Source: Haloquadratum walsbyi C23 (GTDB taxonomy: Archaea; Halobacteriota; Halobacteria; Halobacteriales; Haloferacaceae). From it: 32,000 nt of DNA. Location: positions 1,410,001-1,442,000 of the forward strand of contig NC_017459.1 of assembly GCF_000237865.1 (NCBI RefSeq), given 5' to 3'. Within the stretch, counting starts at the first letter, position 1, and each line of letters opens with the position of its first letter. The notes under the pieces are model-generated. The model made no database searches, was not told where the DNA came from, and saw only the letters and a program-made list of their open reading frames with translations. The position numbers were made by a program, and so were the translations under genes. Of the stretch, positions 3,178 to 13,656 are shown piece by piece.

Positions 3178-3399
3178 TCACCCTTCTTGTGAACGGATTT
3201 CGTCGGCCTGTTGTTTGAGCCGGCGGAGAATTCGAACACGCTGCTGATTCGCGTTTTCGTACGCGACACACGCTCGCAGCGTCTCCATATCGTGAATAGT
3301 CACGATTCCCGCATTGATGAGTCGCAAGTTTGGTGGTTCGAGTCGCTGTGCTGGCGACAGTCCGTTCGAATCTCTTTCTTGCTCTTCTAAGTTGCTCAC
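3178..3399 (-). CDS. small hypothetical protein (73 aa)
   Basis: GTG start at 3399, preceded by GGAGG 9-13 nt upstream on the minus strand. No in-frame ATG before codon 38. Confidence 0.5.
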   Translation of the reverse strand: MSNLEEQERDSNGLSPAQRLEPPNLRLINAGIVTIHDMETLRACVAYENANQQRVRILRRLKQQADEIRSQEG

Positions 3400-3448: not shown

Positions 3449-3727
3449 CTACTCGTCGTCTTCCCCCGGTTGAATCTGGCGGGCATCTTCGGCGAGGTCA
3501 TGGATGTACCCCCGAAGCGTCTCCATGTCCTCGCGGGCGTCTTCGAGCGTCTTACCTTTCGCTTTCGCGATCACCTCGTCCTGATCTCTGGTGCCGGTTC
3601 CTCGTTTGAGCTTCACAGTGAGTGAAACTCCAACATCGCTTCGTTCGACATACTCGGTTCGTTTCGTGCGCTCTTCACTGGACGACGATTCAACTACTCG
3701 GCCTGGTTGTTGCTTTGAGTCAGACAT
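3449..3727 (-). CDS. small acidic hypothetical protein (92 aa)
   Basis: The ORF is open to ATG 3763, but that codon lies inside repeat copy C. ATG 3727 (MSDSKQQPG...) matches the spacing seen for the other copies. Confidence 0.6.
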   Translation of the reverse strand: MSDSKQQPGRVVESSSSEERTKRTEYVERSDVGVSLTVKLKRGTGTRDQDEVIAKAKGKTLEDAREDMETLRGYIHDLAEDARQIQPGEDDE

Positions 3728-3756
3728 TCGCTCTCCACGAGAGCCCTTTGACAGCT

Positions 3757-3783
3757 CTCGCATCCCTTCAGAGGGTGAAAAAC
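3757..3783 (-). repeat. copy C of the T-run + hairpin intergenic element
   Basis: Minus-strand reading: GTTTTTCACCCTCTGAAGGGATGCGAG. It lies 56 nt upstream of ATG 3727 and starts 7 nt after the stop of the 3790-4209 gene. Confidence 0.65.
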
Positions 3784-3789
3784 AAGTGG

Positions 3790-4209
3790 TTAGTCTGCGC
3801 TAGCGGGAGTACTGTCTACGTCGACGTCGTCGAGAAGAGGATAGTCGATGTGCATCTCAATTTTATCGAAGGGGACAATTGGTTGAATCGCTCCCCCAGG
3901 GCCTCCTTCTTTGAGTTCGAGGATGCCCAGCACCTCCAGTTGTTTCAGATCTGCATGGACATCAGAGACGTCGCGGTCGACGAGTCGTGCAGCCTTGCGC
4001 ATACTTGATGGGTGCTCTTTGGCGATCGCCTGAATGAGATTGAGGCGCAGTGGGGTGAGGCTGTCGACGAGATCGTCATAGGTCCCGAACTGGAGTACTG
4101 CACGCTCATCACTTTTGCCCAGTTCATCAGCCTCGGCACTCTGAATGAACTGGAGCGTATCCTCTCGGAGCTGTGCTCGGTCGCCGACGGTGATGTGAAG
4201 CGTGGTCAT
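3790..4209 (-). CDS. HVO_A0114-family-like putative DNA-binding protein (TumA-type antitoxin candidate)
   Basis: The track ORF extends to 4323 and overlaps the upstream gene. ATG 4209 gives MTTLHITVGDRAQLREDTLQFIQSAE...LTPLRLNLIQAIAKEHPSSMRKAARLVDRDVSDVHADLKQLEVLGILE. This is the architecture remembered for the haloarchaeal HVO_A0114 family (wHTH in the C-terminal half). Confidence 0.7.
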   Translation of the reverse strand: MTTLHITVGDRAQLREDTLQFIQSAEADELGKSDERAVLQFGTYDDLVDSLTPLRLNLIQAIAKEHPSSMRKAARLVDRDVSDVHADLKQLEVLGILELKEGGPGGAIQPIVPFDKIEMHIDYPLLDDVDVDSTPASAD

Positions 4210-4243
4210 GTTCGGGTGTGTTGGATGTGTGTTTTGCCTTCTG

Positions 4244-4558
4244 TCAATAGGGACGTTGCGGGTTGCCACCAATGGTGTCCCAGTATTCGTCAGCACTGGC
4301 CCAGAACTCGACGTCTGCGTCACCGGAAGCGGTGTGGAGTTCGTGGCCTTTGGTGTCTTCGTGGGCGTTGTCGTAACGGATGAGCGTTAGGTCTTGCAGC
4401 GTTCCCAGATGAAGGGTGTACTTCCAGCCGGACGGGTAGGCATCTGTATCGGTCGTCCGTCGGATGACTAGGTTCTCGACGAGTCCGGCTTCGACGTGGG
4501 GTGTAGCGGTGCGTGAGTTCGTAGCCCATCCCTCATCCGTTGGGTAGCCGCCCAACAC
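4244..4558 (-). CDS. TumE-family (DUF6516-like) toxin candidate
   Basis: 104 aa with a GTG start and no internal Met. The block WKYTLHLG...LIRYDNAHEDTKGHELHT resembles the RYDNAPHH-type signature remembered for TumE/DUF6516. It lies directly upstream of the HVO_A0114-like gene (34-nt gap). Confidence 0.6.
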   Translation of the reverse strand: MLGGYPTDEGWATNSRTATPHVEAGLVENLVIRRTTDTDAYPSGWKYTLHLGTLQDLTLIRYDNAHEDTKGHELHTASGDADVEFWASADEYWDTIGGNPQRPY

Positions 4559-4620: not shown

Positions 4621-5016
4621 CTATGGGGCGATGAGCTCATCCGCTTCCGCTCCAACCACTGCCTCAATCTCACCCCCGGTGAGACGCCAACGGTCGTTGG
4701 GACCGGCACACTCCAGTTGACTCACGACCTCGTTCTTGAACTGGGTGTAGTGCGTTAGCGCAAATTCTTCGTCATCTGTGTAGTTGAGTAGGAGCGCGAG
4801 TGCAAGCTGCGCTGGACCACTCCCACCGTATCCCCATTCGAACCCTATGGGGCTGTGGTTCGCCACCTTGAGACTCCGGTGTGGCGTGAGCTGTTCATGA
4901 TTAGGTAGTTTCTCCACGACAGCGCGTCCTCGTTGTCGATAGCCGATGTAGACGACATCGCGGTCAGTTCTTTGGCGTCTCTGCTCGGGCGATTGTGGGT
5001 CGATAATTCTACTCAT
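4621..5016 (-). CDS. DUF6166-like protein
   Basis: The track start 5055 is GTG and lies inside repeat copy B. ATG 5016 gives MSRIIDPQSPEQ.... The block GFEWGYGGSGPAQLALALLL is the signature remembered for DUF6166. Confidence 0.65.
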   Translation of the reverse strand: MSRIIDPQSPEQRRQRTDRDVVYIGYRQRGRAVVEKLPNHEQLTPHRSLKVANHSPIGFEWGYGGSGPAQLALALLLNYTDDEEFALTHYTQFKNEVVSQLECAGPNDRWRLTGGEIEAVVGAEADELIAP

Positions 5017-5045
5017 TGGTCTGATCGAAGGTACTCGTTCGAGCA

Positions 5046-5074
5046 CCCCCCGCACCCCTCAGGGGGCGAAAAAC
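5046..5074 (-). repeat. copy B of the conserved T-run + hairpin intergenic element
   Basis: Minus-strand reading: GTTTTTCGCCCCCTGAGGGGTGCGGGGGG, 58 nt upstream of ATG 5016. Confidence 0.75.
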
Positions 5075-5110
5075 TGCCCCATGTTCGCAGAATGACGACG
5101 AAGATGTACT

Positions 5111-5152
5111 ATTAACCAACAAATTCTGTGATTACCGAGTCATGTTGGTTAA
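5111..5152. repeat. inverted repeat ATTAACCAACAAA-N19-TGTTGGTTAA (locus 1)
   Basis: TTAACCAACA at 5113-5122 and TGTTGGTTAA at 5143-5152. The same arms recur at 12548-12621. Confidence 0.8.
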
Positions 5153-5236
5153 GATGGGTGGAGACAATCGATTTCACTCCGCAGATGCTGTGTGCTCTGA
5201 CACACGGGAGAAACGGGAGGATGGTCAGTGCTATGA

Positions 5237-6934
5237 CTAGTCGTCTACCTGGGGGACTCGCCAGATCGATGCGAGTCGTTCGGCAAGTTCTTGATTCCGT
5301 TCTCGAATCGTCTTTTCCGTCCAATTATCGCACTCCTCAAAATACCCGTTCAGCTCGACGTGGCTTTCCATGAGGAGTTCACGCTTTTCGTCAAATGGCC
5401 GATTCGAGAGCTCTGGATTGTAGCCACTGAGGGTTAGATTGCCAAGGGCGTGAAGCCACTGGTCGTGGATACGTTCCCATTCATCGCCAAGCATCGCTTT
5501 CCACTCGTCGCCCCATTCGTTGTCGTCGATCGTCTGCGGCATGACGTGCTCAATCGTGAGCTCATCATACTGAACCGGCTCTTTGTGTCCGAACTGCTCC
5601 TCAAGTGTTCGAAGAACGAGCCACGTTTTCTTTTTGTCGCGGTTGTACATATCAAATCGGAGGATGTTGTCAAGGAGTTCTGTGTCATCTGGCCATCCTT
5701 GACTTTTCAGATAGGCGAATAGCGAGCCTTTCACGTCGTCGTCTTCGATGGACCGTGCAGCAATCGGGAAGGTTCGGTAGTAGCCCCGCGTGCTTCGGCC
5801 GCAAATGAACCGCCGAAGAACGAAGCTTTCCAGTCCGTGTAGAGTCTCGAGAAGTTCATCTATCGAGAGGTTATCCGAATCCCATCTGTACAGCAGATTC
5901 AACACTAGCTGATGAGCCGTTCCAATTTCGAGATATTGGAGGCGACGCAGCGCGTTGGTAAGCTCTTCGTTTGGTGCCGTTTCCGGTCGCTGAATCCAGA
6001 GATAGAGGTCACCATAGTACGAGAGTTCATCCACGAGTTCTCTGGGTGTCATCTCTGACGTCCGCCGCTTGAACTGATGGTAGATTTCGTTTTTCTGGAC
6101 GTACTCACCGGTTCGCATCATATAGTCACGATAGAACTCCGTGAGATCGACCCCCGAATAGTCATCCGTCTCTTCGAACTTTTGCTCAAACGGCATCCAG
6201 TGTTCATCGTTGAACCGATCTTGCTCGGTCAGAGAGAGCTGCATAAAGACATGGTTCCGGATAAGATCAGACTCTTCAAGCTGAAGCCCACGCTCGTTTA
6301 GAGTCTCGAAGATAGCGTAGGGATTCTCGTCTTCAGAAGTCGTGATCATCACCAACGGAAGCTGTTGGATGATGATTTGCTTGAGCCGATCAAGCGTTTC
6401 AATCTCATCATCACCATTCACTTCCTCTATCTTGCTGTACAGGAAGTCATAGCTCTGGTAGATTGATGTCTCCGCAAGGTTCTCGTCTACGCTTTCCTGC
6501 TCCACGATGGTGAAGAGGGCGTCCCGATCTTCGGCACGTGAGATAACTTTGAACTTCTCGACCCCGTCTTTGAATTCGTCAATGAGATACTTCTTGTTAA
6601 TTTCTTCAGCGAAGCTATTGTGTCGCTCATCGTTTACCTCGGTCGCATAGTCTCGGATAGCACTGAGGAAGAGCGTGAGAGTGATGAGACGTTGCTGTCC
6701 ATCGATAACGAGATATTCTGGCACAGTCCCCGGGCGATGATTCCCGGGCATTACAACGAACGTACCAATGAAGTGTTCTTCAGAAAGCGAGTCGGCCTCC
6801 AAGAGGTTTTGCACGTCGGACCAGAGAGCATCTAATTCATCGGTCCCCCACGAATAGTTCCGTTGGAAGACTGGAATTACGAATTGCTTCTCGCCTGCAA
6901 ACACACTTTGGAGAAATTGATCTTCAGCGTCCAT
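5237..6934 (-). CDS. GmrSD-like type IV restriction endonuclease (DUF262 + DUF1524)
   Basis: 565 aa with an ATG start. N-terminal FVIPVFQRNYSW and IDGQQRLITL match the DUF262/ParB-like NTPase module. C-terminal EHVMPQT...WLHALGNLTLSGYNPELSNRPF matches the DUF1524 His-Me finger nuclease module. Confidence 0.9.
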   Translation of the reverse strand: MDAEDQFLQSVFAGEKQFVIPVFQRNYSWGTDELDALWSDVQNLLEADSLSEEHFIGTFVVMPGNHRPGTVPEYLVIDGQQRLITLTLFLSAIRDYATEVNDERHNSFAEEINKKYLIDEFKDGVEKFKVISRAEDRDALFTIVEQESVDENLAETSIYQSYDFLYSKIEEVNGDDEIETLDRLKQIIIQQLPLVMITTSEDENPYAIFETLNERGLQLEESDLIRNHVFMQLSLTEQDRFNDEHWMPFEQKFEETDDYSGVDLTEFYRDYMMRTGEYVQKNEIYHQFKRRTSEMTPRELVDELSYYGDLYLWIQRPETAPNEELTNALRRLQYLEIGTAHQLVLNLLYRWDSDNLSIDELLETLHGLESFVLRRFICGRSTRGYYRTFPIAARSIEDDDVKGSLFAYLKSQGWPDDTELLDNILRFDMYNRDKKKTWLVLRTLEEQFGHKEPVQYDELTIEHVMPQTIDDNEWGDEWKAMLGDEWERIHDQWLHALGNLTLSGYNPELSNRPFDEKRELLMESHVELNGYFEECDNWTEKTIRERNQELAERLASIWRVPQVDD

Positions 6935-6972
6935 TACTGTCCCAACATGCTAAACCGATTGTCATAAGCGTA

Positions 6973-6993
6973 GGGGGAATATGGCCCAACAGC
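6973..6993. promoter_or_regulatory. element related to the TumE-operon palindrome, upstream of the GmrSD gene
   Basis: Minus-strand GCTGTTGGGCCATATTCCCCC compared with GCTGTTGGGAATATCCCCAACA (minus strand of 4567-4588). A second CCCAACA at 6941-6947 lies 7-13 nt upstream of ATG 6934. Confidence 0.4.
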
Positions 6994-7082
6994 GGCCGAA
7001 TAACCGTTCCAGGGACCCTCCCTATGACTATTCTCACTAAGTACCACCCAACGGTATGTTGTCAGAACTTCCGACGTCTACA

Positions 7083-7343
7083 TCACTCTCTCCTCAACCA
7101 CTCATTTTTCACACCTTCTGGGGGAGGACTTTTCGAAATCACTGGTTCTCCTTCACCTGGAACCAATCGAAGTTCTCCGTCTTCGATATACACGTCTACG
7201 ACATCGGTATCGACCGGGTCGATTCCAAGTTGGACAAGATCTGTCCCTGTGAGTGCGATACCGATCCCTAATGGGGTACTATCCCTGCATCGGTTCTCTC
7301 GAGCTGATGTAACTGGCTCCTCTGGCTCTTCGTGTGGAGGCAT
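7083..7343 (-). CDS. small hypothetical protein, possibly AbrB/SpoVT-like
   Basis: 86 aa with an ATG start. LGIGIALTGTDLVQLGIDPVDTDVVDVYIEDGELRLVP resembles swapped-hairpin DNA-binding modules. The 3-prime end of the ORF reads through a weak copy of the hairpin element (7110-7138), so the true C-terminus is uncertain. Confidence 0.45.
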   Translation of the reverse strand: MPPHEEPEEPVTSARENRCRDSTPLGIGIALTGTDLVQLGIDPVDTDVVDVYIEDGELRLVPGEGEPVISKSPPPEGVKNEWLRRE

Positions 7344-7373
7344 TCTTGTTACGAGTTGAGATACACCATAACC

Positions 7374-7766
7374 TCATTTTCTTCCTTCGAGCCGACCTGA
7401 TTTCTGGAATTCAGCACGCCGCTCAGCGCTCCGCTTCGCCGCGATGTCTCGCGTCCGCTTCTCCCGACCTTCCTGCGTCCCCAGCTCTGCCTGGGCACTG
7501 ATGCGCTCCAACTCAGCCTCTCGCGCCCGAATGCGCTCTTCCTGTTCGAGGGTCGCACCGTAGATCCGCTCGTCACTGGTATCGACCATCCCGTCTGGGT
7601 GGTTCGCATCGACCTTCGCCTGCACCTCCATCTGCACCGTCGCCTGGAACTTCAGCGTCTCATCGACGACCTCGAAGCCGTCTTCGTCGACCGCCGCTTC
7701 GTCCGCCTTTTCGAATGCCTGTTCATCGACCGAAACTACATTATCAAAGACGTTCTTATTTGGCAT
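7374..7766 (-). CDS. hypothetical protein (130 aa), acidic N-terminal half and Arg/Glu-rich helical C-terminus
   Basis: ATG start at 7766. The composition is typical of a real haloarchaeal protein. No family was recognised. Confidence 0.55.
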   Translation of the reverse strand: MPNKNVFDNVVSVDEQAFEKADEAAVDEDGFEVVDETLKFQATVQMEVQAKVDANHPDGMVDTSDERIYGATLEQEERIRAREAELERISAQAELGTQEGREKRTRDIAAKRSAERRAEFQKSGRLEGRK

Positions 7767-8180
7767 CGGAACTCAACCTAGTTCCGAAGGCGCTCACGCG
7801 CCCGACACCGCGGTGCTCCTACATCGCGGTTCTTCGACGACATCGACCGACAGAAGCATTTGCGCGCTCTCGCTCGCGCCTTCGCGAGCGCCCCATGGGG
7901 AGGCCACCCAACCAGCACCGCGCGCCGACCCGCCTGGAGCGAGCGACGCGGAGGGCGGCAGCGGCGAGCGGGGCGGGCCGTAGAGAAACACCGTTCAACC
8001 ACTCTCGACGCTCAGTTACCCAGCCGACATCCTGGCGGACTCAGAAAGGGCGAGGCCGTCTCGGTCGTCCCCCGGCCCCGCAAGCACTGCAGGCACGAGG
8101 AGCGCAGCGGTGGTCGCGGGATGCCGAGCGACCGAGGGCTTTTATCTGTTGTGCCTACGTCCTCGACAGAGCCTGGTCTG

Positions 8181-8230
8181 TGTTGCAAAATGCCGAATTG
8201 ATTTATACATTAGTTCGCTAATATGCAACA
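8181..8230. promoter_or_regulatory. inverted repeat TGTTGCA-N36-TGCAACA flanking a TTTATA box
   Basis: TGTTGCA at 8181-8187, TTTATA at 8202-8207 and TGCAACA at 8224-8230. ATG 8233 lies about 28 nt from the TATA centre, which is leaderless geometry. Confidence 0.4.
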
Positions 8231-8232
8231 GT

Positions 8233-8961
8233 ATGCTCACAGAAGCTGAGGTTCGCGCCCTTACAGCCCTCCACGGTGAGCAGACGGTCTCTGACCTTGC
8301 AACGAATCTCGATCGGAGTCTCAGCTACACGTCAGAACTCGTCGAGCGGCTCGAAACGGCTGGCCTCGTCGAGACACGTCGACAGGGGAAAACAAAGCGG
8401 ATTCGACTGTCGGACGCAAAGGCCCTCGAGTTACTCACGAAACTCACACAACAGTATTCACACATCGACTGGCCGGAGCTGTTGTCAGGGGCTGCCCTCC
8501 GTGTGTGCTACTACCTCGACACCCCGCGGACCCCGACCAAACTCGCACGCCGCGCCGACGTCCACCGAAGTACCGTCCACCGTGCGCTAGCCCCGCTTCA
8601 GCATCGCGGAATCGTCTACCAAACTGACGACGGGGCGTACACACTGAACGATGGCTTCGAACCGCTGAGCGTATTCGCTCGTGAGCTTGCCCATCACGTC
8701 CACCGCCAGACTGTCGAAGCACAGACCGACACGTACTCGATTCTGTGGGAATCGCTTGACGAGTTCCTTGTACAGATGCCGACTGAGATCGACAACGAAC
8801 ACTTCATCCCGACAGGCCCAGACCAGTTCCAGCGATACAGAGCCGGAAGTCGTGAAAGAGAAAGGCGAGCCTGTCGAGCAGTATCCGCCGCCCGGCGAAG
8901 GCTGGTAGTCATCTCAACCTGGGAATATCTGGGGCGAAGCGCCCCCGGTCAGTGTCGGTAA
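8233..8961 (+). CDS. transcriptional regulator with two winged-helix-like modules; C-terminus suspect
   Basis: The track ORF starts at GTG 8110 inside GC-rich non-coding-looking sequence. ATG 8233 gives MLTEAEVRALTALHGEQTVSDLATNLDRSLSYTSELVERLETAGLVE.... A second HTH-like segment is PTKLARRADVHRSTVHRALAPLQHRGIV. The last ~45 aa are Arg-rich and overlap the convergent Bax1 gene. Confidence 0.65.
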   Translation: MLTEAEVRALTALHGEQTVSDLATNLDRSLSYTSELVERLETAGLVETRRQGKTKRIRLSDAKALELLTKLTQQYSHIDWPELLSGAALRVCYYLDTPRTPTKLARRADVHRSTVHRALAPLQHRGIVYQTDDGAYTLNDGFEPLSVFARELAHHVHRQTVEAQTDTYSILWESLDEFLVQMPTEIDNEHFIPTGPDQFQRYRAGSRERERRACRAVSAARRRLVVISTWEYLGRSAPGQCR

Positions 8962-10310
8962 TCAGGGGCGCGTCCGTCGACAGCGTACTCCTCAGCCAAC
9001 TCCACGACATCATAGACGTGAATCCCTGATTTGAACCACAGCACACGGTCATCCATCCCCTCAAAGTCATCCGACGAGCAATCCAATCGCTCAGATACGG
9101 CGACGATGAGATTATCACGGTCGGCGTCTCGTATTTTCGCCAGCTTCTTATCAAGATATTCGGGCGTCCAGAACCCGACGATCTCGAACACTACCCGCCG
9201 TCCATCTGGGTGTTCGATAGCGAAATCGGGAAGCATTACCTCCGCACCCAAGTCCAGCACATCATCCTCTCGGACGAGTTTCCAGTCCGTATTCATTCGC
9301 TCCCACTTCTGAGCAAGCGTTCGTTCGACATCAGAGTCGAACTCGCCTTGAGCCGAGTAGTGCGAAGACAATCCACTGGAGGAGTCAAGCTCAAACGAGA
9401 GTGTCCGACCTGCGGATCCGCTTTCATCGTTGAGAATATCCGCCTCCATTTTCCAGCGATCACACAACGGGAGTGCAGGCAGGAAGTTTGCCATCCGTAT
9501 CCCGTACTTCCGTGATTTCGAGAAGAGAGACGCTGCTCCGTCTAGAATCGCCTCATACCCGTCAGCAACGTCTGTACTGGGGACACGATTACCGTCGCTA
9601 TCGATTGGATAGATACGGTGCATCAAGCCGAATAGCTTGACATAGCTAAAAACAGTCGCAAATGAGTCCCAAACCCGTATCCGCATCTCGGTTGCATCGT
9701 AGAGTTCCGCCTGTGCCAGAGCCAGATTGTATCGCGTGAGAAGCCAGTCAACTGTGATGGTATCCTCAGCGTAGGACTCCTCACTATCACCCGTGAGTCG
9801 CGTTGTTGTTGATGACTCATCAGCCCCCTCGTATTTATCGGAAACACGGTGTCCAAAGCGGACGAGTCGCTTGTTCTCCTCCAAGTCCGCATACATCCCC
9901 CGATAGCACTCTTCAAGCGAGATACCCAGTCGATCAGCAACGGTACTGTATATCCACACGGATTGGGTATCCTCTCCCAACGTTGGTTGACGGACAATCG
10001 GGTGATTCCTGTTCGCAACTTCGAAAAGCTCCTGTCGAATCTCCCGTGAGTCAACTGGAGCAACCGTCTCAAACTCACATTCATCTTTCAGTAGCTTCGC
10101 CAGCCCTTGGACGATTTTGTAGTCGGTATCCGAAACCGTGAGCTGGTCAATTGTGTCTTCCAACTCTCCTTTCGATTCGCCGAGATGCTCCTCAAAAATC
10201 TGGATGAGCTCCGCCGCTGTCTCTCGATACTGTTGCTCGTCAGTATCGATGAGCAACGGAGTAATGCTATTCTCGTCCGTGCGTGAGCGTGCAAGGTCAG
10301 CTGTTAGCAT
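8949..10310 (-). CDS. bax1: Bax1-like nuclease (DUF790 family), partner of XPB
   Basis: 453 aa with an ATG start. It begins 14 nt before the stop of the upstream XPB gene. Size, N-terminus (MLTADLARSR...ITPLLID) and position downstream of XPB match the archaeal XPB-Bax1 operon. The family call is from memory and was not searched. Confidence 0.75.
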   Translation of the reverse strand: MLTADLARSRTDENSITPLLIDTDEQQYRETAAELIQIFEEHLGESKGELEDTIDQLTVSDTDYKIVQGLAKLLKDECEFETVAPVDSREIRQELFEVANRNHPIVRQPTLGEDTQSVWIYSTVADRLGISLEECYRGMYADLEENKRLVRFGHRVSDKYEGADESSTTTRLTGDSEESYAEDTITVDWLLTRYNLALAQAELYDATEMRIRVWDSFATVFSYVKLFGLMHRIYPIDSDGNRVPSTDVADGYEAILDGAASLFSKSRKYGIRMANFLPALPLCDRWKMEADILNDESGSAGRTLSFELDSSSGLSSHYSAQGEFDSDVERTLAQKWERMNTDWKLVREDDVLDLGAEVMLPDFAIEHPDGRRVVFEIVGFWTPEYLDKKLAKIRDADRDNLIVAVSERLDCSSDDFEGMDDRVLWFKSGIHVYDVVELAEEYAVDGRAPDYRH

Positions 10311-11706
10311 CTGAAGTCACCCCCTGCCGACGTTGTTCGGAAACGTAGGTCTCCATTGTGTCTTCGGCGATGATCTCGTAGAGACGAGCGGGTTGTCGGT
10401 CGTCTGTTGGACGGAGAATTCGCCCTAATCGTTGTGCATACTGGCGTTTCGACGCACTCCCTGAGAGAATAATCCCAACGTTCGCCGCAGGCACGTCGAT
10501 TCCCTCATCAAGCACCTGTGAGGTAGCGAGCATCGAGTACTCCCCTGTCCGAAACCGCTCCAGAATTTCTGTTCGTTCGTCAGTCTCAGTCTGGTGTGTG
10601 ATACACGGGACGACGAACTCTTGAGAGATGTCGTATGCGAACTCGTTGTTGGCGGTGAAAATAATAGTGCGGTCGTCATAATGTCGTTTCAGGAGGGTAT
10701 CGAGCGTGTCAAGTTTCTTTTCAGCAGTACGAGCGATGGTTTCCGCTCGTTGCTTGGCGATGAGAGCCCGTCTCCCCTGTGGGTCATACGAAGTCCGCTT
10801 GAGGAACTCAGCATACCCGTTTTCTTTCCAGAGGTCAAAATCGTGGCTGTCAACATAGTCACGGTAAATCCCGTATTCTTCATCGTATTGTTCCCGTTCG
10901 TCTCCTGTTAACTCTACCCCGAGATGGATGGTTTCGTACTCGCTGAGGTACTCGCCAGCAAGTTCGTTAACCTCCTCTCGGTAGACGACCGTGCCCAGAA
11001 GCTCCTTCAATGTCTTGTGTTTGCCGTCAGCACGCTCATAGGTGGCTGTGAGTCCGAGTCGATACGGGGAGATCGTCATTTCAGGAATCTGCTGGTAGGT
11101 TGGAGCTGGCAGATGGTGTACTTCGTCGACAACAAGAAGTCCAAACTTGTCGCCGTATTCGTTGATGTAGCGGTAGGCGGAGTCATAGGTCGTAACCGTG
11201 ATGTTTGTGATATTGTGACTTCCGCCACCAAGAACACCGACCCCATCAGGGAGTTGCTCGCTGAACGCGTTAGTGAGCGTCGCGTGCCATTGGTTCATCA
11301 AGTCGATCGTCGGAACGACGACCAGCGTACTCACACCTGCATCAGCAATCGCTTGGACAGCAAGGAACGTCTTTCCGCTTCCAGTCGGGAGAACAACGCT
11401 TCCCTGGCGGTCGTTGTCCTGCCACGCCGAAAGAGCCTCCTGCTGATAATCTCGCGGTTCGATAGCAACCGAGGGAGTGAAGTGAAACTCGGAGTACGCA
11501 CGGGCATCATCTTCGAACTCAGCTATGGTCGCTGTGGATTGGGTGAGAGTGGCTTGTTCGTCGGGGTCAGCCAGCCAATCACAGATATCGCGATAGTGTT
11601 GTGCCCGTGCCCGATACTCTTCAACACGGTCATCCCACTCAGCATATGGCACAGTATCAGGGGCGTCTTCAAGAAGAAGCGTGCCGTCATCAAAGGCGAG
11701 ACGCAT
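10297..11706 (-). CDS. xpb: XPB/Rad25-type superfamily 2 DNA helicase
   Basis: 469 aa. N-terminal MRLAFDDGTLLLED, Walker A LPTGSGKT, motif II DEVHH, LGLTATYERADG (RED-like motif position of XPB), TSQVLDEGIDVP, and motif VI QRLGRILR. Confidence 0.9.
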   Translation of the reverse strand: MRLAFDDGTLLLEDAPDTVPYAEWDDRVEEYRARAQHYRDICDWLADPDEQATLTQSTATIAEFEDDARAYSEFHFTPSVAIEPRDYQQEALSAWQDNDRQGSVVLPTGSGKTFLAVQAIADAGVSTLVVVPTIDLMNQWHATLTNAFSEQLPDGVGVLGGGSHNITNITVTTYDSAYRYINEYGDKFGLLVVDEVHHLPAPTYQQIPEMTISPYRLGLTATYERADGKHKTLKELLGTVVYREEVNELAGEYLSEYETIHLGVELTGDEREQYDEEYGIYRDYVDSHDFDLWKENGYAEFLKRTSYDPQGRRALIAKQRAETIARTAEKKLDTLDTLLKRHYDDRTIIFTANNEFAYDISQEFVVPCITHQTETDERTEILERFRTGEYSMLATSQVLDEGIDVPAANVGIILSGSASKRQYAQRLGRILRPTDDRQPARLYEIIAEDTMETYVSEQRRQGVTSDANS

Positions 11707-11770
11707 TCAACCCTGTCTATGCGGGTAGGATACTTGTCTGTGCTGGAGCAAACACCTCATGAGGGACGCA

Positions 11771-12142
11771 CTACGTCGAGAGGTCATCAGCCATTGAGCG
11801 AAGTTCACTCTTGCTCGGTTGACTTCCGATCTCGACGGTCTCATCCCCATCCCCATCCCCAGCCCAGAACCGAAACTGCTGATGATCAACATCGAAATGA
11901 AGTCCACAGGAGATATCGGGATCTGCCTGCTCGTATGCGGATTTATTCACAGCCTCCCCCGCTTGAAGGGTTTCAAGAAGATACTCGGCGACGTGGGGAC
12001 GTTGCTTCATCGCCAAGATGTGGTCGGTTGCGACGTGTTTGAGTACTTCCTCACCCGTGCTGTATCTATTGCCGACAAGATAGAACTCACCGCTGAAATT
12101 GTATGATTCGACTCGGATGCTGAGCGAATATGTATTGCTCAT
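11771..12142 (-). CDS. hypothetical protein (123 aa) at the head of the XPB-Bax1 transcription unit
   Basis: ATG start, 64-nt gap to XPB, same strand. No family was recognised. Confidence 0.55.
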   Translation of the reverse strand: MSNTYSLSIRVESYNFSGEFYLVGNRYSTGEEVLKHVATDHILAMKQRPHVAEYLLETLQAGEAVNKSAYEQADPDISCGLHFDVDHQQFRFWAGDGDGDETVEIGSQPSKSELRSMADDLST

Positions 12143-12547
12143 ATGCTATCATCATCGTTTCACATTATAAATATGCTCTTGCGTAGACCATTGTTGGTGG
12201 CGAGCTGTCGGGCGATCTTGTTGTAGTTCCACACGGTGTCTGGACTTACCAGAACAGGAGTGAGACAGGGTGAAAGAATCGATTTCCCGAATTCACTCAG
12301 TCCGGAGAGTTCTTACCAACAATGTACTTCATAAGAGCGTTACAAGTATTACGCCCACGTTTGTTGTGACATACCTCAGGGGCAAGCCCCGAGGCTTCCC
12401 TGTTGAGACCGCACTACATCAGCAAGGGAATTTCATTTCTCCTGAGCTTTTCCATGAGGAACCGGCTGGAAGTAACACCCGAACACACCACAGCGCCCCT
12501 AAAAGCCAGTCACTCCAGCATAACCCGTATAGCTGCAAAAAGCCCAC

Positions 12548-12621
12548 ATTAACCAACAAACTGGTCCGTCTGTTGCTATCTGTTGGTTAATCATGGTGAG
12601 CTGTTGGTTAATCATGGTGAG
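12548..12621. repeat. inverted repeat ATTAACCAACAAA ... TGTTGGTTAA (locus 2) with a perfect 21-bp tandem duplication
   Basis: ATTAACCAACAAA at 12548-12560. CTGTTGGTTAATCATGGTGAG at 12580-12600 is repeated exactly at 12601-12621. A degenerate CTGTTGCTATC lies at 12570-12580. Confidence 0.85.
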
Positions 12622-12672
12622 CTCAATCGCGCACGCCCGCATGTTTTTGTCTCGCAGTATTGAATTACCAGT

Positions 12673-13656
12673 ATGCCATTTCGAGTGACGTGGAGCAATC
12701 TCCTCGACAACGTGGAGGAACTTCCAGCAGACGCCACACTCCTTACTCCGGTTTCTCAGAAGCCGTTTCAGATTACCGACGTCCAGCAACATCGAATGCT
12801 GATCGAGTATCGGACCGGCAGTGAGACTGTGCCGCTCCAGCGAGAGCAATTCGAGACGTTGTTCCAGCGCGTTGACGATGCGGCTGGAGCGTTCGATCTC
12901 GATCGCCTCCCACCTGGAGCTGAACCGTATGCAACCGTCGCGAGTCTTCATCCGCGATTCACGATCGACGACCGGGACGGCACGCTCTCCAAAAGCGAGA
13001 CGCCAACAGCGTCGCCACTTGTCGATGCACACACGGTCGAACACAACGATACCTCACGAGAAGAGCCCGATATCTCGGTGTACGCAGACTCACTTCTGTT
13101 GATCGACGCGCTCGAGCAGCACGATGTAACGTCACTCACCGACCTGGAGATGCCGACGCTTGTGAACCTCTACACGCTGCTGTCAGACGTCCAGCGCAAC
13201 GCCAACGACCTTCGACAAGACGTTCGTGGCGTCTTGCTCGACCGTCTCCACCACGATCAGCCTGTCAGCGGACAGTACGGCTCCGTCCAACGGACTGCCC
13301 GTAAAAATCGGACACTCAAAGATGATGAGACGGTTCTTGAGCGATTGGAGGCGCAAGGAATTGCCCCTGAGCGTATCATGAGCATCGATGCAAGCAAAGT
13401 TGATGACGCATTGGAAGTGACAGCACTCTCTGAATCCGATGTGTACGATATCGAGGAGAGCGAGTATGTACGGAAGGCAGATGTCGACGAAGAAATGAAA
13501 CAAACTCGTCTTCAAGGGCTCAAAGACCAGTTAGCTGGTGCCGACGAAGACACAACCGAGCTCCAAGCCGAAATCGAAGAGTTAGAGCAGCGTATTACCG
13601 AGCTCACCAGTTTTGACTCCGGAACCTCCTATCATACTCGCTCAACTGGTGGGTAG
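12673..13656 (+). CDS. hypothetical protein (327 aa) with C-terminal coiled coil
   Basis: ATG 12673 lies about 27 nt downstream of the T-run at 12644-12648. The composition is acidic. The C-terminal EMKQTRLQGLKDQLAGADEDTTELQAEIEELEQRITEL is coiled-coil-like. No family was recognised. Confidence 0.7.
   Translation: MPFRVTWSNLLDNVEELPADATLLTPVSQKPFQITDVQQHRMLIEYRTGSETVPLQREQFETLFQRVDDAAGAFDLDRLPPGAEPYATVASLHPRFTIDDRDGTLSKSETPTASPLVDAHTVEHNDTSREEPDISVYADSLLLIDALEQHDVTSLTDLEMPTLVNLYTLLSDVQRNANDLRQDVRGVLLDRLHHDQPVSGQYGSVQRTARKNRTLKDDETVLERLEAQGIAPERIMSIDASKVDDALEVTALSESDVYDIEESEYVRKADVDEEMKQTRLQGLKDQLAGADEDTTELQAEIEELEQRITELTSFDSGTSYHTRSTGG

Follow-up and report, generated by a model that had tools for sequence, protein, structure and literature searches.

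The KorB OB sites of IncP plasmids and the parS sites of ParB are contiguous palindromes of 13-16 bp. Widely spaced half-sites are found in the NikR operator (GTATGA-N16-TCATAC), which is bound by elongated oligomers, and the recombination signal sequences (RSS) of V(D)J recombination have fixed, non-conserved spacers of 12 or 23 bp. The attC sites of integrons are imperfect structures of variable length (55-140 bp) that act as a folded single strand together with IntI and attI and stand in arrays of mostly one orientation; the paper on archaeal integrons that describes them makes no mention of Halobacteria (PMC9668308). Here we analyse a split palindrome that occurs twice in a stretch of 32,000 nucleotides of Haloquadratum walsbyi C23 (contig NC_017459.1, positions 1,410,001 to 1,442,000 of the forward strand; hereafter the window), where its copies, locus 1 and locus 2, bracket a block of 7.4 kb with a GmrSD gene and an XPB/Bax1 operon. 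Locus 1 and locus 2 turn out to be independent copies of one split palindrome, which has sharp bounds, is widespread in the haloarchaeal mobilome and is linked to the promoter of a small protein of the uncharacterised family DUF6788.

Locus 1 consists of ATTAACCAACAAA at 5111-5123, followed by TGTTGGTTAA at 5143-5152. Locus 2 consists of ATTAACCAACAAA at 12548-12560, followed by TGTTGGTTAA at 12581-12590 and again at 12602-12611. These arm coordinates, taken from an earlier note that was based on the sequence alone, all matched the window sequence. The 13-mer at 5111-5123 contains the 10-bp arm, a flanking A and a family-typical AA. The parts of the two loci are:

5112..5121, no strand: left arm of locus 1, TTAACCAACA
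5122..5142: spacer of locus 1, AATTCTGTGATTACCGAGTCA, 21 bp
5143..5152, no strand: right arm of locus 1, TGTTGGTTAA
12549..12558, no strand: left arm of locus 2, TTAACCAACA
12559..12580: spacer of locus 2, 22 bp, homologous to the spacers of the loci L184, L002 and L003
12581..12590: right arm of locus 2, first copy, TGTTGGTTAA
12601..12621: second copy of a 21-bp tandem duplication, CTGTTGGTTAATCATGGTGAG; the first copy, at 12580-12600, precedes it exactly head to tail

The 10-mer arm, with at most one mismatch, was found five times in the window, always in loci 1 and 2, where 0.77 occurrences were expected, and none of 100 shuffled sequences reached five. The repeat is thus beyond chance, as had been proposed. 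The duplication at locus 2, also described before as perfect, is exact. The extra copy provides a third arm (12602-12611), which is two helical turns (21 bp) away from the first right arm, and a degenerate arm-like TGTTGCTATC lies inside the spacer at 12571-12580. The duplication is bounded by a CT microhomology and was found in the window only, with one copy in the closest homologous sites (L184, L002 and L003), and represents a window-specific slippage event. Two further claims of the earlier note did not hold. The right flanks of both loci, said to be similar, gave a local alignment score of 12, equal to the shuffle mean (P=0.59; rank 295 among 436 family flanks), and these flank statistics also led us to reject the idea that the window loci form a sub-lineage with shared flanks. 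Moreover, a common orientation of the loci cannot be defined, because the arms are perfectly palindromic and the flanks have no significant shared asymmetry.

One genome per species was scanned for TTAACCAACA-N15-35-TGTTGGTTAA. We found the motif in at least 120 genome stretches, nearly all from Halobacteria and from dozens of genera, and in 53 viral contigs (IMG/VR), unrelated to the 7.4-kb block to which the repeat had first been tied. With spacers of 15-35 bp allowed, the total length of the haloarchaeal sites was 41 bp (88 sites), 42 bp (83), 40 bp (25) or 43 bp (13), and the few bacterial chance matches had scattered lengths. The family pattern is TTAACCAAC(A/G)-N21±1-(T/C)GTTGGTTAA, with an information content of 2 bits per arm position and about zero just outside the arms and in the spacer. 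Spacers are unrelated between sites and have a GC content of 50%. Exact arms are nearly always paired (154 forward, 150 reverse, 143 pairs; about zero in shuffled sequences). Arm deviations are nearly all A to G at the innermost position (10) and are uncompensated in the partner arm; since variation is essentially confined to this position, the core is TTAACCAAC. At least two sites were present in 35 of 167 loci, with a median spacing of 2.9 kb, and sites per replicon are few (1-4). Two sites 7.4 kb apart are ordinary for the motif family.

Besides the canonical arms, we found the split-palindrome arm variants CTAACCAAC, TTACCCCAC and CCTTATGTA. Mirror-symmetric variants occur as CTAACCAACA...TGTTGGTTAG twice in L185, a Haloarcula plasmid, and as GTTACCCCAC-N23-GTGGGGTAAC three times in L169, a halovirus-like contig, beside a canonical site. 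The L169 contig encodes a Cas4-like nuclease, Orc1/Cdc6 and PCNA, and its sites lie at 2570-2614, 2799-2843, 4966-5010 and 5029-5069; two of them are situated immediately before the orc1/cdc6 start, and a CTTTCCGGAACC(CCCC) element is common to three of the four and follows the site at no more than about 25 nt.

Being short, dispersed and intergenic with inverted ends, the motif could be taken for a miniature mobile element, similar to miniature inverted-repeat transposable elements (MITEs) or repetitive extragenic palindromic (REP) sequences, or for a chance palindrome. However, shuffled controls yielded practically no pairs, the palindrome does not extend beyond 10 bp, target-site duplications are absent (direct-repeat flanks were not above chance) and spacers are shared only between orthologous sites. 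We rejected the MITE/REP candidate on the last two grounds, and a miniature element or chance origin is extremely improbable.

The motif occupies intergenic DNA of plasmids, islands and viruses, and only 14 of 215 sites lay inside called genes, compared to 73% coding DNA. According to gene calls that were crude, the sites are found in tandem, divergent and convergent intergenic regions as in the background, about 29% of the distances from site to 3' end are within 20 nt of the stop codon, and many sites lie 3-16 nt past stop codons. A function as terminator was rejected, since T-runs follow only 2.8% of the arms. The frequent position just past stop codons would also suit a hairpin in RNA or single-stranded DNA, with a 10-bp stem and a loop of about 21 nt, acting as a stabiliser of the 3' untranslated region, a processing signal or a replication or transfer structure; both strands of a perfect palindrome can form the same stem, and the symmetric arm variants preserve complementarity. 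On the other hand, the stem is invariant rather than co-varying, and its commonest variant, at position 10, is uncompensated. The loop is fixed at 21±1 nt, matching three helical turns, for which a hairpin gives no rationale, and a loop of 21 nt is destabilising. Furthermore, sites are also found in front of promoters and around the TATA-like element of the DUF6788 gene, and there was no Rfam match. A hairpin is therefore an improbable explanation.

The sites are located at points of module exchange. When loci were aligned pairwise, homology ended at the outer arm edge in 247 alignments, compared to about 60 ends spread over the neighbouring 200 bp. In some pairs the flanks kept 93-97% identity as far as the motif and were unrelated past it, so the breaks at the arms are not only an effect of divergence. 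For instance, L024:949 and L096:2194 break at the near arm and do not share the spacer, whereas L012:652 and L024:5745 break at the far arm and share it. One flank family, containing the gene of a protein here named MSYEPP, is joined to 15 different partner families. In addition, we found three cassette indels, in which two sites with an insert correspond to one site with matching outer flanks (L050/L057, L011/L124 and L075/L024+L066). The inserts were a 389-aa gene, a gene pair for a 182-aa protein and a winged helix-turn-helix (wHTH) protein, and a wHTH and nucleotidyltransferase (AbiE-like) pair; in one of the three cases the crossover lay inside an arm. In pNATPE01 of Natrinema pellirubrum, the insertion point of an ISH3 element coincides with the outer edge of a TTAACCAAC arm (L196 5395-6800 compared to L182 11340-11400). 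The arm that adjoins this element is homologous to a site on plasmid pHV4 of Haloferax volcanii, and its partner arm is absent.

These observations could indicate a dedicated, attC-like recombination site, at which a recombinase supplied in trans moves cassettes, with DUF6788 as at most an accessory or directionality factor and the window block as one or more captured cassettes. The exact breaks beside highly identical flanks, the cassette indels with a crossover inside an arm and the combinatorial partner flanks are in line with this. So are the near-invariant arms, as for a site of cleavage or synapsis, the many sites just past stop codons, like attC (convergent regions are occupied as well), and the cargo, AbiE-like in one insert and GmrSD in the window block. 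However, no recombinase recurs near the sites, where the top neighbours are Orc1/Cdc6, DUF6788, ParA, PadR and DUF7342. Tyrosine recombinases require 6-8 bp of identical overlap, and a 21-bp spacer that differs between partners suits neither this group nor the small serine recombinases. Among the closest pairs, no difference at the site was ever seen, and the shared 10-bp arms could be used without a dedicated enzyme by microhomology-mediated end joining (MMEJ), which is documented as active in Haloferax. Moreover, no empty site was found for the window block, which is a mosaic. We regard a dedicated recombination site as possible, though doubtful.

Next to the sites, no neighbour gene was universal and no recombinase family recurred among 172 loci. 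The commonest neighbours were Orc1/Cdc6 (42 of the 172 loci, within 4 kb) and a 107-aa protein, MSYEPP (30 of 172). Further recurrent neighbours were a 175-aa family, ParA, DUF7342, PadR-like, TnpB, ArdC-like, PolB, DUF6610 and DUF6166 proteins, and the double-wHTH family was found in eight of the loci. No relatives were found when viral contigs were searched with single proteins. MSYEPP is a member of DUF6788 (PF20586), a family with at least 1,475 cluster representatives, and is 78-94% identical across genera. To sample the association independently of the motif, loci were fetched through the MSYEPP protein alone, which yielded six lineages. In 15 loci from five of these, a site ends 13-16 nt before the MSYEPP ATG. 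The split palindrome is near-obligately linked to the DUF6788/MSYEPP promoter. As far as we can tell, it is undescribed in the searchable literature, in which the arm sequence was absent in an archaeal context and nothing relevant was found on DUF6788/PF20586.

The MSYEPP gene is usually convergent with an orc1/cdc6 gene at a distance of a few hundred bp (L197-L211 and L184). In one metagenomic lineage, a fragment of an IS200/IS605 Y1 transposase and a TnpB gene lie between the two. The spacer of the MSYEPP sites begins with an A/T-rich stretch (AAAnTATG). This stretch is probably the TATA box, which would place the left arm at the position of the transcription factor B recognition element and the right arm between the TATA box and the transcription start.

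On the same small plasmids there are more distant DUF6788 paralogs with a split palindrome of their own, ATACCTTATGTA-N29/30-TACATAAGGTAT (in short form CCTTATGTA-N29/30-TACATAAGG), which overlaps their own ATG. In 1.74 Mb, 12 of 15 exact arms of this type were paired at N29/30, and one orphan pair had an unrelated spacer. The site sequence therefore co-varies with the DUF6788 subfamily, MSYEPP or distant paralogs. An 8-mer of this second palindrome type, CTTATGTA/TACATAAG, lies within 40 nt of six of 244 canonical sites, compared to about 0.5 expected (L008 5903-5935, L039, L080, L054, L097 and L184 2360-2397), as part of a recurrent flank, 'ctttcc...ctacataagagcg'. The AlphaFold model of DUF6788 is of moderate confidence (predicted local distance difference test score 74) and has a long helix, an acidic linker and a three-stranded beta-sheet, which contains a conserved NRYYYWQWRDGDKIRSQYKG motif and is rich in conserved aromatic and basic residues. 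Integrase arm-binding domains appeared only among the non-significant matches of this model.

Taken together, we consider it fairly probable that the split palindrome is a duplex site for a DUF6788 dimer and at the same time a crossover point for module exchange; we infer both binding and recombination. Each monomer of the 107-aa MSYEPP subfamily would contact one 10-bp arm, and with arm centres 31-32 bp apart, which corresponds to three helical turns, both monomers would sit on the same face of the helix. At its own gene, where the site ends just before the ATG and brackets the A/T-rich TATA-like stretch, binding would therefore autoregulate expression, probably by repression. The remaining copies, which lie at module edges, close to a stop codon or in front of a promoter, would be occupied in trans. 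As the arms are identical in every copy, they would serve as crossover points for modules and cassettes of one or two genes between replicons, either through a dedicated enzyme or through microhomology-mediated joining. As the window encodes no DUF6788 gene, both its loci would be orphan sites that depend on a gene elsewhere in the genome. The spacer of locus 1 is of the MSYEPP type, with 83% identity to Haloferax plasmid sites over the 41-bp unit, yet no MSYEPP gene follows the site. At locus 2, the 21-bp duplication would add a third half-site in helical phase.

Several observations weigh against this explanation. In the sixth lineage of the motif-blind sample (L184), the MSYEPP gene is present without a site and the 41-bp unit is precisely lost. 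A DUF6788 gene lies within about 8 kb in only 25% of the genomic and 4% of the viral loci that were found through the motif, and none is encoded in the window or beside the variant-arm sites of L185 and L169 (within the available locus DNA), so action in trans must be assumed. The DUF6788 model has no significant relatives in the PDB by fold or by sequence. Near-perfect conservation over 18-20 bp is unusual for operators. Convergent (3'-3') sites occur at background frequency according to the crude gene calls, whereas a purely promoter-linked role predicts otherwise; a promoter-only operator is weakened by this, as the sites do not avoid convergent intergenic regions. Finally, all pairs that are at least 88% identical span the motif, which means that over short time scales exchange at the arms is infrequent.

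We also asked what the two sites mean for the block between them. The gene content that had been given for it (DUF6166, GmrSD, double wHTH, Bax1, XPB and a 123-aa open reading frame) was confirmed, and Pfam detected no recombinase domain among the block proteins scanned. The genes and promoter elements around the two loci are:

4621..5016, minus strand: DUF6166 gene, probable ATG at 5016 (GTG at 5055 in the list of open reading frames), downstream of locus 1
5069..5073, minus strand: T-run, then a GC-rich hairpin, 38 nt from the locus 1 arm
5237-6934, minus strand: GmrSD gene (GmrSD_N+C, Pfam)
8110-8961, plus strand: gene of the double-wHTH protein
8949-10310, minus strand: Bax1 gene (DUF790)
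10297-11706, minus strand: XPB gene
8949..12142, minus strand: operon of the 123-aa gene, XPB and Bax1 (DUF790), starting 406 bp from locus 2
12644..12648, plus strand: T-run centred 27 nt before the ATG at 12673, conserved in L184, L002 and L003
12673..13656, plus strand: 327-aa gene, phrog_35116, function unknown

Between the GmrSD 3' end and the DUF6166 promoter, 84 nt past the GmrSD stop codon, is locus 1. The divergent region between the 327-aa gene and the XPB/Bax1 operon contains locus 2, at 61-82 nt before the ATG of the 327-aa gene. The T-run and GC-hairpin next to locus 1 are likely to be the TATA-like promoter element of the DUF6166 gene, and the T-run at 12644-12648 is likely to be the TATA box for leaderless transcription of the 327-aa gene. 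Elements of the first type (GTTTTTC-GCCCC..GAGGGG..) were seen at 5045-5073 of the window (minus strand), at about 900-948 of L024 and at about 2455-2493 and 4000-4036 of L050. They lie between the site and the starts of leftward genes (DUF6166, DUF6610 and the 175-aa family), in some loci abutting the arm, and probably represent a shared promoter type.

The earlier note had read the repeats either as operators of the island's own wHTH regulators or as attL/attR-type ends of a 7.4-kb defence cassette. The two sites indeed bracket a block with defence genes, and this block encodes wHTH proteins. However, the motif is class-wide and mostly unlinked to the genes of the block, an outcome that the note itself had named as a refutation, the double-wHTH family is rare near the sites, and the flank similarity is at chance level. 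Moreover, each locus was found elsewhere without the block. The module at 5056..5214 around locus 1 is 90% identical to plasmid NZ_CP026310 of Salinigranum rubrum, where the right-hand neighbour differs; homology ends 62 bp right of the arm, 23 bp before the GmrSD stop codon. Locus 2 recurs together with the promoter and the 327-aa gene downstream of an Orc1/Cdc6-type gene in plasmids of Halorubrum ezzemoulense and Halobacterium salinarum, with homology starting at 12548, one base before the left arm. The XPB/Bax1 part, the wHTH module and the remainder of the block match different plasmids, no record contained 80% or more of the block, and an empty site, in which DUF6166, one inverted repeat and the 327-aa gene would adjoin, was not present in any fetched locus. 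The block is a mosaic of modules between two sites rather than one mobile unit, and the two repeats do not define it as a mobile cassette. Both block-specific readings are already largely refuted and very unlikely. What stands of them belongs to the family level: an operator of a dimeric DNA-binding protein is supported by the geometry and by the DUF6788 link, with nothing linking the wHTH proteins of the island to it, and boundaries similar to attL/attR are supported for modules by the homology breaks and the three cassette indels.

The gene next to locus 2 was followed further. It is found on 71 haloarchaeal plasmids, with an upstream site only in its closest relatives, and the site was therefore rejected as a part of its promoter. 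In a few records the 327-aa protein is annotated as DUF2800. The gene, with further copies at L182 7001-7981 and L191 2501-3493, repeatedly adjoins XPB/Bax1 in varied arrangements (in the window, pHV4 and Halovenus), which suggests that the 327-aa protein and XPB/Bax1 are functionally linked. Locus 2 is therefore better seen as internal to a 327-aa/XPB/Bax1 neighbourhood than as an outer boundary. Exact sites are located 110 bp (H. volcanii pHV4; NC_013966.1, 451295-451335) and 94 bp (Halovenus plasmid) upstream of the XPB/Bax1 operon. The site was rejected as a general part of this operon, with three genomes that have it and four that do not.

Apart from the two loci, the window proteins are strongly acidic, all DNA matches were to plasmids of Halobacteria, and the rest of the window is metal-homeostasis DNA (CobW, ZnuA, NikR and SelO). 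On these grounds, roughly 1-14 kb of the window looks like a mobilome-derived island. No orc gene was found in the window and no Rfam family matched it. The 327-aa and DUF6166 proteins of the window had no exact-protein match on record, and the phage collection gave no DNA or protein match. The left part of the island encodes DUF7342 (1831-2535), a TumE-like 157-aa protein (1358-1831), DUF7389 (3449-3763) and HVO_A0114/TumE (3790-4558), families that flank sites elsewhere. The family of a 73-aa open reading frame at 3178-3399 (minus strand) also has members in L012 and L024, which stop 9 nt short of a site; downstream of the window copy there is no site.

Within the block, the module at 7402-8838 carries the gene of a 130-aa DNA-binding/OB-fold protein and the double-wHTH gene, and is 87-88% identical in DNA to many plasmids of different genera. 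The 283-aa wHTH open reading frame looks truncated at a junction, because its C-terminus is aberrant and it overlaps the stop region of Bax1 (8949-8961). An imperfect inverted repeat (12175-12198/12315-12338) lies between the 123-aa gene and locus 2; its 24-nt arms are 79% complementary, 116 nt apart, and contain CCATTGTTGGT and ACCAACAATG, which partially resemble the family arm. It is followed by a conserved stretch of about 120-170 nt (12366-12532) with the hairpin CCTCAGGGGCAAGCCCCGAGG. At least 15 haloarchaeal plasmids contain unannotated DNA that matches this stretch, and there was no match in Rfam. Similar sequence lies upstream of the pHV4 homologue of the 327-aa gene. This stretch could be a small repeated element or a remnant of a non-coding RNA, for instance a TnpB/IS1341-type end.

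Haloarchaeal plasmids and proviruses are highly mosaic, and the organisation of their modules is poorly understood. Here, a near-invariant 20-bp signal with a fixed geometry is found across dozens of genera and in viruses at the exact points of module exchange, and is linked to a small, uncharacterised protein that is extremely conserved and is found alongside orc1/cdc6 replication modules. If this pair of protein and site is real, DUF6788 would gain a function, and the mobilome would have a common regulatory or boundary code, as well as a handle to predict the positions of gain and loss of defence and other accessory cassettes. Since plasmid pHV4 carries an exact site, the idea is directly testable in the genetic model organism H. 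volcanii.

Compared to the described systems, the motif shares its neighbourhood with the origin recognition box (ORB) and G-string repeats of haloarchaea; in L002 and L005, sites and classical ORBs are 170-500 bp apart. However, its sequence is unrelated to these ORBs, no AT-rich unwinding element lies between the arms, and most sites are not near orc genes; no ORB repeats flanking an AT-rich region were found at the motif, as the GC content of the spacer also indicates. Like the NikR operator and the V(D)J RSS, the motif has two conserved elements whose spacer is constrained in length, to whole helical turns, and not in sequence. The proteins and the biology are different, and the half-sites of the motif are 31-32 bp apart from centre to centre and dispersed on mobile DNA. 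Similar to the KorB OB and parS sites, it forms near-perfect palindromes across the intergenic DNA of mobile replicons, near replication and partition genes, with one copy at the promoter of its candidate binder and others at a distance. In contrast to those sites, its arms are separated by 21 bp without conservation, DUF6788 as the candidate binder has no relation to ParB or KorB, and there are only one to four copies per replicon.

Unlike attC, the motif has perfect 10-mer arms, a fixed spacer of 21±1 bp and a total length of 40-43 bp, and its flanking genes occur in all orientations. Neither IntI nor another recombinase is among the recurrent neighbours in the 172 loci or, by Pfam, in the window block, and an imperfect structure of variable length is not seen, as the position-10 variants are uncompensated. 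On the other hand, the motif resembles attC in its conserved inverted ends with a variable centre and its intergenic position, often just past stop codons with several copies per region. As in integrons, cassettes of one or two genes without a recombinase inside lie between two sites where a relative has one, and cassette indel polymorphism bounded by sites was present in three cases. We put forward, as a tentative possibility, an undescribed system of module exchange, in which DUF6788 proteins and split palindromes (TTAACCAACA-N21-TGTTGGTTAA and its sister motifs) would act as module boundaries on haloarchaeal plasmids, islands and viruses, and cassettes such as the window GmrSD or the AbiE-like pair would be inserted, excised or swapped: a functional analogue of the integron, built from unrelated parts and working on duplex DNA.

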